Virus record (IMG/VR): IMGVR_UViG_2541047426_000010
Location: 1-18,769 of that record
Strand: one strand, 5' to 3'
DNA length: 18,769 nucleotides
Source: a virus
Lineage: Duplodnaviria; Heunggongvirae; Uroviricota; Caudoviricetes
Part shown: piece by piece, positions 12,001 through 15,000 of the stretch
Numbering within the stretch: the stretch's first letter is position 1
How the letters are laid out: every line of letters starts with the position of its first letter
Program-made: the position numbers

Positions 12001-15000
12001 TGGGTGGTGGAGCAGATGTCAGAGCTGACGGCCATGACAGCCTCGTTTGTGCTGGCAACACCGACGGAGACGGACGGAGCGCTGTTTCCCGGTCGCATTA
12101 TGCTGGCGAATACCTGTATGTGGACCTACCGCTCTGATGAATGTGGGTTACACGGTCCGGCAGTGGCGGATGAGTTCGACAACCCCACCACGGATATCCG
12201 TAAGGACAGATGCAGCAAGTGCATGCGCGGGTGTGAGATGCGCGGCATGGTGGCTAATTTTGGCGGTTTCCTTTCCATCAATAAACTTTCGCAGTAAATC
12301 CTGTTTTATGACACAGACTGAATCAGCGATTCTGGTGCATGCCCGGCGGTGTGCGCCTGCGGAGTCGTGCGGCTTCGTGATAGGCACCCCGGAGGGCGAA
12401 CGGTACCAGCCCTGCGTGAATATCTCCGCAGAGCCGGAGGCGTATTTTCGTATTGCGCCGGAAGACTGGCTGCAGGCAGAGATGCAGGGGGAGATTGTGG
12501 CGCTGGTTCACAGCCACCCTGGTGGTCTGCCCTGGCTGAGCGAGGCCGACCGGCGGCTGCAGATAAAGAGTGCCCTGCCCTGGTGGCTGGTCTGCCGGGG
12601 GGAAATTCACAAATTCCGCTGTGTGCCGCACCTGACCGGGCGTCGTTTTGAGCACGGGGTGACGGACTGTTACACCCTGTTCCGGGATGCATACCATCTG
12701 GCGGGGATAACGCTGCCGGATTTTGTGCGTGAGGATGACTGGTGGCGCAACGGTCAGAACCTTTACCTGGACAATATGGCGGCGACTGGTTTTTACCGGG
12801 TGCCCCTGTCCTCTGCACAGGCGGGCGATATCCTGCTGTGCTGCTTTGGCGCATCGGTGGCCAATCATGCCGCCATATACTGCGGCAACGGTGAACTGCT
12901 TCACCATCTGCCTGAACAACTGAGTAAACGGGAGAGGTATTCCGAAAAATGGCAACGACGAACGCATTCTGTCTGGCGTCACCGCCACTGGCACGCATCT
13001 GCCTTCACGGGGATTTGCAACGATTTGGCCGCCGCCTCAGCCTGTATGTGAACACGGCAGCGGAAGCCATCCGGGCGCTGTCGTTACAGGTGCCGGGATT
13101 CCGCCGTCAGATGAACGAAGGCTGGTACCAGATACGTATTCGCGGTGAGGACACGGCACCGGAGGCGGTGTACGCCCGTCTTCACGAACCTCTGGGTGAG
13201 GGGGCGGTCATCCATATTGTGCCGCGACTGGCCGGGGCCGGAAAGGGCGGACTGCAGATTGTGCTGGGGGCGGCAGCCATCGTGGGCTCTTTCTTCACGG
13301 CCGGGGCATCAATGGCGTTATGGGGTTCAGCCCTGGCAGCCGGTGGTTTTTCTGCCACCACGATGCTGTTTTCACTGGGGGCCAGCATGATACTGGGCGG
13401 TGTGGCCCAGATGCTGGCACCGAAGGCAAAAACACCGGAGTACAGGGCGACGGATAACGGTAAACAGAACACGTATTTTTCGTCACTGGATAACATGATT
13501 GCCCAGGGGAACCCGATGCCGGTGCCTTATGGTGAAATGCTGGTTGGTTCACGACGGATATCCCAGGACATCAGCACCCGTGATGAGGGCGGAGACGGGA
13601 AAGTGGTGGTTATCGGGCGGGGATGAAAATAAAAAAATCCCGCAGAGTTAGCGGAGCTGCGGGAGAGAACGATGAAGATTAACGTTATGGAGTTATTTTT
13701 CAGGCATCAAAAAAGTAATGCAGCGTCATTATTGCGGCTACAGGCAATTGCCGGAAATGTGAAGAGTTTCAGAAATTTTATTCCGTCATGACACAGGCAC
13801 CCTCCGGGGTGCCTGTTGTTTTCTGGCATAAACAGATTCAGACATCAGACAGGAGAGGGGGACAGAGTGGGTAAAGGGGGCGGCAAGGGGCACACGCCGG
13901 TAGAGGCAAAGGACAATCTTAAGTCCACGCAGATGATGAGCGTGATTGACGCCATTGGTGAAGGGCCGATTGAAGGTCCGGTGAAGGGGCTGCAGAGTAT
14001 TCTGGTGAACAAAACCCCACTGACGGACACGGACGGCAATCCCGTGATACACGGTGTGACCGCGGTCTGGCGCGCCGGGGAGCAGGAGCAGACACCGCCG
14101 GAAGGTTTTGAGTCATCCGGCTCTGAAACCGCACTGGGCGTGGAAGTGACGAAGGCAAAGCCGGTGACGCGCACCATTACGTCCGCGAACATTGACCGCC
14201 TGCGGGTTACCTTCGGGGTGCAGTCACTGGTGCAGACCACCTCACAGGGTGACCGTAACCCGGCATCCGTCCGCCTGCTGATTCAGCTGCAGCGTAACGG
14301 TAACTGGGTGACGGAAAAGGATGTCACCATTAACGGCAAGACCACCTCACAGTTCCTCGCTTCGGTGATTCTGGATAATCTGCCTCCCCGTCCCTTTAAC
14401 ATCCGGATGGTCCGGGAGACGGCGGACAGCACCACGGACCAGCTGCAGAACAGAACGCTGTGGTCGTCATACACCGAAATCATCGATGTGAAACAGTGCT
14501 ACCCGAACACGGCGATTGTGGGGCTGCAGGTGGATGCGGAGCAGTTTGGCGGTCAGCAGATGACGGTGAACTACCATATCCGCGGTCGCATCATCCAGGT
14601 ACCGTCAAACTATGACCCGGAAAAACGCACGTACAGCGGCATCTGGGACGGCAGCCTGAAACCGGCATACAGCAACAACCCTGCCTGGTGCCTGTGGGAC
14701 ATGCTGACCCACCCGCGCTACGGAATGGGAAAACGCCTGGGGGCGGCGGATGTGGACAAGTGGGCGCTGTATGCCATTGTGACACTGCCGGAGACCGGTG
14801 CCGCCACGGTGAACCTGATTAACGGCAGCGGTAAGCCGGTGAGTGTGGACATCACCGCACACCCCGCGCCGGACCGGATACAGGTCAGTACCCTGCCTGA
14901 TGGTGTGGAGACATACGGGGTGTGGGGACTCTCCCTGCCGTCACTGCGCCGTCGCCTGTTCCGCTGTGTCTCCGTCCGGGAAAACACGGACGGCACCTTT

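Follow-up and report, generated by a model that had tools for sequence, protein, structure and literature searches.

The DNA analyzed here (the window) is the 18,769-nucleotide Caudoviricetes record IMGVR_UViG_2541047426_000010 of IMG/VR, and it is the whole of contig AVRD01000005.1 (18,769 bp) from the draft genome of Escherichia coli B7-2. Searching it by tblastn with lambda proteins revealed homologs of the lambda late operon in lambda order: Nu1, A, W, B, C, D, a truncated E, V, G, T, H, M, L, K, I, J, lom, and the side tail fiber. The subject of this report is the homolog of J, the host specificity protein of the tail tip. It has the I homolog upstream and the lom homolog downstream, and both tblastn and the called genes with their Pfam families gave the L-K-I-J-lom order of a lambda-like tail operon. 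This J gene carries two in-frame deletions. Its open reading frame (ORF), its domains, and the two junctions are as follows, with domain names as in PMC10721106; EHEC stands for enterohemorrhagic E. coli, and P0034 is a full-length EHEC J.

13867-16692, + strand: J-homolog ORF, GTG start, 941 amino acids plus stop, no internal stop on translation
13867..14778, + strand: N-terminal block, residues 1-304, corresponding to the lambda HDII-insertion domain with FNIII-A; 80% identical to lambda J
14122-14487, + strand: FNIII-A (fibronectin type III), residues 86-207; PF24801 FNIII-A_GpJ, E=6.6e-41
14778..14780, + strand: junction of a 618-bp in-frame deletion, break between 14779 and 14780, ...TATGCCATTG joined to TGACACTGCC...; residues 305-510 lost
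14779..14982, + strand: hub remnant, residues 305-372, aligning to lambda 511-578; partner strands lost
15012..15016, + strand: junction of a 30-bp in-frame deletion, break between 15012 and 15013, ACGGCG joined to GTGGAT; QHVPEKEAIV lost
15043..15666, + strand: FNIII-1 and FNIII-2 (immunoglobulin [Ig]-like/FNIII), residues 393-496 and 498-600; PF24421, E=6.3e-41, and PF24489, E=4.7e-40; both intact
15637..16296, + strand: helical shaft and central straight fiber, intact and identical to P0034; PF09327 Phage_Tail_Tip at residues 654-782
16297..16689, + strand: C-terminal receptor-binding domain, residues 811-941, intact, EHEC type; PF12421, E=3.3e-37

A reading made from the sequence alone (the sequence-only reading) had described a 941-residue J starting at GTG 13867, against 1132 residues for lambda J, with the frame maintained and a central in-frame block of about 190 residues missing. 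The ORF is indeed open throughout, the same GTG start is used by full-length J relatives, and lambda J, taken from NC_001416, has 1132 residues. BLASTP aligned the window protein to lambda J in two collinear blocks, residues 1-304 with lambda 1-304 (80% identity, ending in DKWALYAI) and residues 305-941 with lambda 511-1132 (58% identity). A central block is missing, as proposed, but it comprises 206 residues (lambda 305-510) rather than about 190. The net shortfall of 191 residues relative to lambda is a composite of losses of 206 and 10 residues, small indels, and a gain of 28 residues in the helical shaft. The missing block is a discrete gap within an alignment that is otherwise 80 to 100% identical, and chance is no concern.

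The better reference for the window protein is the 1157-residue J common in EHEC prophages, rather than lambda J. P0034, a 1157-residue EHEC J found on 998 contigs, differs from window J by four substitutions and two gaps, at residues 305-510 and 589-598. We placed the junctions by DNA alignment with the J genes of the FDAARGOS_293 yehV-site prophage (1157 residues), the nleA-carrying prophages of TW14359 (951 residues) and CEC01302 (941 residues), and lambda; the 618-bp break was read against the full-length FDAARGOS_293 gene and lambda. The remaining gaps in this alignment all set lambda apart from the EHEC alleles as a group. The sequence-only reading had asked whether the length difference was one block or many small indels, and alignment to the 1157-residue J resolved it into one 206-codon block and one 10-codon block. 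To judge from these comparisons, window J is a deletion allele of the 1157-residue EHEC-type tip attachment protein J.

The missing segment had been located at 14760-14840. The 618-bp junction does lie inside that interval, but the 30-bp junction lies outside it. The shorter deletion corresponds to lambda residues 590-599 (589-598 in the 1157-residue J) and falls in the linker between HDIV and FNIII-1. Microhomology amounts to one nucleotide (G) at the 618-bp junction and three nucleotides (GTG) at the 30-bp junction. Because it is so short, we regard both deletions as illegitimate events, and homologous recombination between direct repeats was ruled out as their cause. No second copy of the missing 206 residues was found elsewhere in the window, where tblastn returned only noise (E > 1). 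Both junctions recur in the J gene of CEC01302, which likewise encodes 941 residues, and the 618-bp junction is present in the 951-residue J of TW14359. Across the J region, the window is 99.2 to 99.5% identical in DNA sequence to these two nleA-carrying prophages, and the entire J region of CEC01302 aligns to it as one piece at 99.5% identity.

The published layout of lambda gpJ runs from the HDII-insertion domain (with FNIII-A at 72-215) through HDII, HDIII, HDIV, a linker, two FNIII domains, a helix bundle, and the central fiber to the receptor-binding domain (PMC10721106). HDIV contains an extra β-sandwich (483-569) between strands β24 (477-482) and β25 (570-578) (PMC10721106); it forms the hub core, and HDI and HDIV extend the tube (PMC11101478). 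Six J-specific Pfam domains were found in lambda J and five of them in window J: FNIII-A_GpJ, Ig_J, Ig_J_second, Phage_Tail_Tip, and Ig_GpJ_C. The sixth, PF13550 Phage-tail_3 (lambda 330-498, E=5.9e-43 in lambda J), was not found in window J by the Pfam search. The sequence-only reading had left open which domain was absent; the Pfam comparison identified it as this conserved hub domain, and no FNIII, Ig-like, or fiber domain is missing. FNIII-1 and FNIII-2 are 61% and 96% identical to their lambda counterparts. From the published domain order and the positions of β24 and β25, we infer that loss of 305-510 removes HDII, HDIII, and most of HDIV, and the published limits imply that the HDIV β-sandwich loses its first 28 residues as well. 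Numeric limits for HDII and HDIII are not stated in PMC10721106 or PMC11101478.

The deleted 206 residues are 78% identical between lambda and EHEC J. In an alignment with 30 diverse relatives (29 to 78% identical to window J), they hold 37 nearly invariant columns, and the deleted segment is the most conserved part of the J family. The 30-bp deletion likewise takes conserved positions, namely H591 and K595 of a QHxPxK motif, two residues that are nearly invariant in the relatives.

We modeled a full-length relative with AlphaFold2 (AF2), using the alignment of 30 diverse homologs. The model matched the published β24 and β25, with strands at 478-482 and 570-578. In it, the left breakpoint of the 618-bp deletion lies inside a predicted helix (298-309), and the right breakpoint lies past sandwich strands 492-499 and 504-507, both of which are lost while four strands remain. 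Since the left breakpoint cuts a helix and the right one falls within the β-sandwich, the breakpoints ignore domain borders. With the 30-bp deletion, strand 584-590 loses its end, and a short linker helix (594-600) is mostly lost. AF2 confidence for the full-length protein was 78 to 94 over residues 241-600, with a predicted TM-score (pTM) of 0.48; for window J it was 38 to 58 around both junctions, with a pTM of 0.32. The mean per-residue confidence (pLDDT) of the hub remnant (window residues 301-370) was 63, versus 87 for the equivalent full-length stretch. We treat the lower confidence at the junctions as supportive only. The best Foldseek matches to the window J model were 8k35_A and 8iyk_F (E about 1e-70), with TM-scores of 0.2 to 0.3 that are low because a multidomain chain was modeled in a pose unlike that in the assembled tail; whole-protein Foldseek added nothing to the sequence alignment.

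The shaft of window J contains a 28-residue insertion relative to lambda (window 15703-15786, J residues about 613-640; alignment columns 836-867, gapped in lambda), which is present in all EHEC-type J proteins. The region is the part that refolds on receptor binding in lambda, and AF2 confidence there was low in both models.

We then looked across public sequence collections to determine how widespread the two junctions are. Of 5,426 complete E. coli genomes, 4,943 contained J-like DNA, with 16,913 such places in all. The 5,426 genomes were searched with 50-bp probes centered on each junction, for which a seed match is possible only if the junction itself is present, and with a probe for the intact left boundary:

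618-bp junction probe: 64 places in 64 of 5,426 complete E. coli genomes, all chromosomal, none on plasmids, one copy each
30-bp junction probe: 16 places in 16 genomes, all within the 64
Intact left boundary probe (EHEC allele): 2,868 places in 615 genomes

Every carrier of the 618-bp junction with a stated serotype was O157, including TW14359, SS17, SS52, and ATCC 43889. None of 50,697 phage records contained the 618-bp junction, and in a junction-spanning tblastn search each sampled phage record with full coverage had about 650 extra nucleotides. The 64 chromosomal places, the absence from phage records, and the restriction to O157 wherever a serotype is stated identify the short-J allele as chromosomal, lineage restricted, and vertically inherited, and not as a circulating phage allele.

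Protein collections gave a matching picture. Among the closest 120 clusters in a collection of 5.8 billion proteins, 104 had 1157 residues, two had 1155 to 1156, ten had 951, and four had 941. We also searched 1.84 billion cluster representatives (50%-identity clusters) exhaustively with HMMER; of the 150 top matches, 45 contained blocks on both sides of the breakpoint (813 to 3530 residues, 33 to 78% identical), and all 45 kept at least 150 residues of the 305-510 segment. A natural short variant was sought among these 150 matches and none was found; many of the short matches were contig fragments or chimeric calls.

Other forms of J with internal deletions exist in public data. P0123 (630 residues) joins residues 1-416 to the last ~214 residues, and P0150 (549 residues) joins J at about residue 171 to about residue 401. 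Independent in-frame J remnants thus seem to turn up repeatedly in prophage data; some of them, however, may be chimeras created by assembly or gene calling.

The sequence-only reading had also pointed to divergence from lambda at the C terminus and had suggested a different receptor specificity. Over its last 131 residues, window J matches the full-length EHEC J P0034 exactly and is 40% identical to the lambda LamB-binding domain. The suggestion was a fair one, and a receptor other than LamB seems likely from this degree of divergence. The closest solved tip is that of A8 gpJ (PDB 9wca/9wcb), with 59.5% identity over 126 aligned residues, and 8xcj and 9wca are the structure matches for the shaft, fiber, and tip region. 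In A8, lambda gpJ is fused to the C-terminal part of gpJ from a natural E. coli phage, and OmpC serves as the receptor (PMC11338833). We assigned no receptor to the window tip, since even the A8 tip is only 59.5% identical to it. All EHEC J proteins share this divergence of the tip, which is unrelated to the deletion.

Upstream of J, the head region of the window carries a lesion of its own, between the E and V homologs:

6840-7088: truncated E homolog, ending at residue 83; the ORF continues to a stop at 7106
7091 onward: V homolog, beginning at its residue 6 in a frame other than that of E; gene callers used ATT at 7088

No ATG, GTG, or TTG start for V was found before 7166, and V has probably lost its start and ribosome-binding site too. 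Homologs of FI, FII, Z, and U were absent from the window in the tblastn search with lambda proteins. With a J that lacks its hub, a truncated E, a V without a canonical start, and no FI, FII, Z, or U, the window prophage has the lesions expected of a cryptic or defective lambdoid prophage of the O157 group.

The sequence-only reading had connected the J deletion with this head-gene deletion. Both lesions do lie in the window, but the connection is insecure because the window, a draft contig, is a mosaic. In a 500-bp identity scan against three reference prophages, positions 7001-10000 had 0 mismatches to the FDAARGOS_293 prophage at the yehV site, next to btsS, which has the same E-to-V head lesion and a full-length J. 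Positions 10001-12500 matched all three references poorly, and positions 12501-18769 were nearly identical to the CEC01302 nleA-carrying prophage except for a divergent patch at 14001-14500. The two window-matching regions are about 1 Mb apart in CEC01302, and the head lesion and the J lesion were in two different prophages in the complete genomes examined. The entire window was not found in any one complete genome; the best match was 98.4% identical, in four pieces, with a full-length J. Either gene conversion among prophages or a false join in the draft assembly may account for the mosaic, and the presence of both lesions in one element may likewise be due to real recombination or to a join made during short-read assembly.

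In CEC01302 and TW14359, the short-J prophage carries nleA, nleH1-2, and nleF downstream; we take it to be Sp9/CP-933P. In the TW14359 prophage, T is truncated as well and K contains an internal stop (L003 10677-10979 and 14709-15452), whereas in CEC01302 T and K are intact and J has both deletions. Because TW14359 has the T and K lesions that CEC01302 lacks, and CEC01302 has the additional 30-bp J loss, different sublineages are gathering different secondary lesions. In the window itself, L, K, and I have normal lengths.

Two further features lie near J and downstream of it. The spacer between I and J (13627-13866) is 240 bp long, versus 60 bp in lambda, and has the same length in the EHEC prophages L002 and L003. 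It contains a 39-amino-acid ORF (13672-13791) and then, just before the J start, a strong hairpin that resembles a terminator (13793-13816; 10 pairs and a T-run). A 283-amino-acid ORF on the - strand (17734-18585) lies antisense inside the side-tail-fiber homolog; it is a gene-caller prediction with no Pfam match on record. Its arrangement is reminiscent of lambda orf206b, antisense within orf-401.

Taken together, these results make it very probable that window J is a deletion-damaged lambda-type tail-tip gene in a cryptic lambdoid prophage of the E. coli O157 group that is undergoing stepwise decay. The deletions are present in the DNA with exact extents, they are rare and nested, and they remove a conserved domain. 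In the proposed sequence of events, an illegitimate, microhomology-level deletion of 618 bp would first have taken the conserved core of the hub, which closes the tail tube, with the frame kept by chance. A later 30-bp deletion in the same lineage would then have removed the conserved QHxPxK stretch from the linker that leads to FNIII-1. We place the 618-bp loss earlier and the 30-bp loss later because the 16 carriers of the second are nested within the 64 carriers of the first. A J protein with only the N-terminal insertion domains and the fiber would be unable to close the tail tip and, by itself, would support neither tail assembly nor infection. The missing hub suggests that J function has been lost, and the window gene is best explained as a hub-less, probably nonfunctional allele fixed in a sublineage of O157-type E. 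coli.

Several observations weigh against this account. The ORF is open and in frame, and RefSeq lists it as "host specificity protein J" with no pseudogene flag. The N-terminal block, the whole fiber, and the receptor tip are undamaged. Both deletions are in frame, an outcome with a chance probability of about 1/9, which is mildly unexpected under pure decay. The loss of function is deduced from sequence and domain comparison, and AF2 confidence is no measure of stability. Genomes with the short J have 8 to 13 J-like places each, including several other full-length J copies. Trans-complementation by those copies is conceivable, and the short allele could persist neutrally or be rescued by them, so that its persistence is uninformative.

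The sequence-only reading had offered decay and a natural shorter J variant as alternatives, and the comparisons favor decay, with no phage record carrying the junction and all 45 breakpoint-spanning relatives keeping the segment. A functional short J would mean a tail tip built without the J hub domains, or with those domains supplied by another protein. The preserved frame at both deletions and the annotation of the ORF as a normal gene would fit such a protein, and hub domains are split between genes in lambda (HDI in gpL) and in RcGTA (PMC10721106). However, the missing segment is not encoded by any other ORF of the window, L, K, and I are not unusually long, and proteins of about 940 residues are not the norm among the closest 120 clusters. 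At four substitutions from the full-length allele, the change is recent and does not look like an evolved architecture, and the breakpoints lie within a helix and within a β-sandwich. The phage-record, window-ORF, and relatives searches largely refute a natural short J, which we consider highly improbable. The idea that the gap is a draft-contig artefact, produced by collapse or a mis-join among near-identical prophages, draws on the fact that the window is a draft contig, AVRD01000005.1, in which sequence of the yehV-site prophage (7001-10000) and of the nleA-carrying prophage (12501-18769) is combined. Because finished genomes carry both junctions base for base (64 and 16 genomes, CEC01302 among them), the J deletions are no artefact, and the chance that they are is exceedingly slight; only the placement of the J and head-gene lesions in one element could be one.

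The truncated J might instead have been kept for a new role, as a dominant-negative subunit or as a silent reservoir of receptor tips for recombination between prophages. Both deletions are in frame, and the parts retained are the HDII-insertion/FNIII-A region, which contacts gpI in lambda, and the trimerizing shaft and fiber. Each host genome holds many near-identical J copies, and the mosaic structure of the window points to frequent exchange between them; passages in PMC2669165 describe defective O157 prophages that interact and recombine. There is, however, no sign of selection: the allele differs from the full-length gene by only a few substitutions and occurs in no more than 64 genomes, which are related. 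The further 30-bp loss and the other lesions in the same prophage are what neutral decay predicts, and a tip identical to those of full-length copies adds no diversity. Retention for a new role is the main alternative left, but we consider it improbable. One specific version, in which the hub-less J acts as an interfering subunit, co-assembling with full-length J from lambdoid phages that are co-resident or incoming and so preventing closure of the tail tip, is very improbable; if true, it would be a case of prophage-encoded sabotage of rival phage assembly.

Tail genes of cryptic prophages are well known to decay, the sequences are already public under an ordinary product name, and the finding matters little beyond annotation. 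Within that scope, the 941- and 951-residue entries named "host specificity protein J" in RefSeq and UniRef are best treated as hub-less deletion alleles. They are unsuited as models of a compact J or as proof of a tail-making prophage. The nested junctions are exact markers of sublineages (64 and 16 genomes) and could aid O157 and prophage typing. When a single draft contig of an O157-type genome shows several lesions, these may come from different prophages.

We compared window J with the known systems closest to it. Lambda gpJ (PDB 8iyk, 8k35, 8xcg) shares its gene position, the N-terminal HDII-insertion/FNIII-A region, FNIII-1 and FNIII-2, the shaft, the central fiber, and the Ig-like receptor-binding fold. 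Relative to lambda gpJ, window J lacks 305-510 (the PF13550 hub) and 590-599, has a shaft longer by 28 residues, and ends in a tip only 40% identical to that of lambda, so that LamB binding is not expected. The 1157-residue EHEC J (P0034, of the type of WP_105626738, "phage attachment tail tip protein J") is identical except for four substitutions, with GTG start, shaft insertion, and tip all in common; the window allele lacks its residues 305-510 and 589-598. The short J of TW14359 and CEC01302 belongs to a prophage with a complete lambda-like set of head genes, whereas window J stands behind a head region with the E-to-V deletion.

The pool of defective prophages in O157 Sakai offers a broader parallel. 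Passages in PMC2669165 describe lambdoid prophages that likewise have deletions, frameshifts, and insertion sequence (IS) insertions in morphogenesis genes, score host specificity as defective in Sp15 and others, and report that defective Sakai prophages are still packaged via the products of other prophages. The same passages score host specificity as intact in Sp9, unlike window J, and make no mention of the 618-bp deletion allele. In the VT1-Sakai phage record AP000400.1 (the Sakai Stx1 [Shiga toxin 1] phage), J is annotated as two coding sequences ("J x2") and is 96.5% identical over the probe, with a lesion that differs from that of the window; the split J agrees with the defective host-specificity score that PMC2669165 gives Sp15 in those passages. 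At the tip, finally, A8 gpJ has the same receptor-binding fold as window J but a different sequence.

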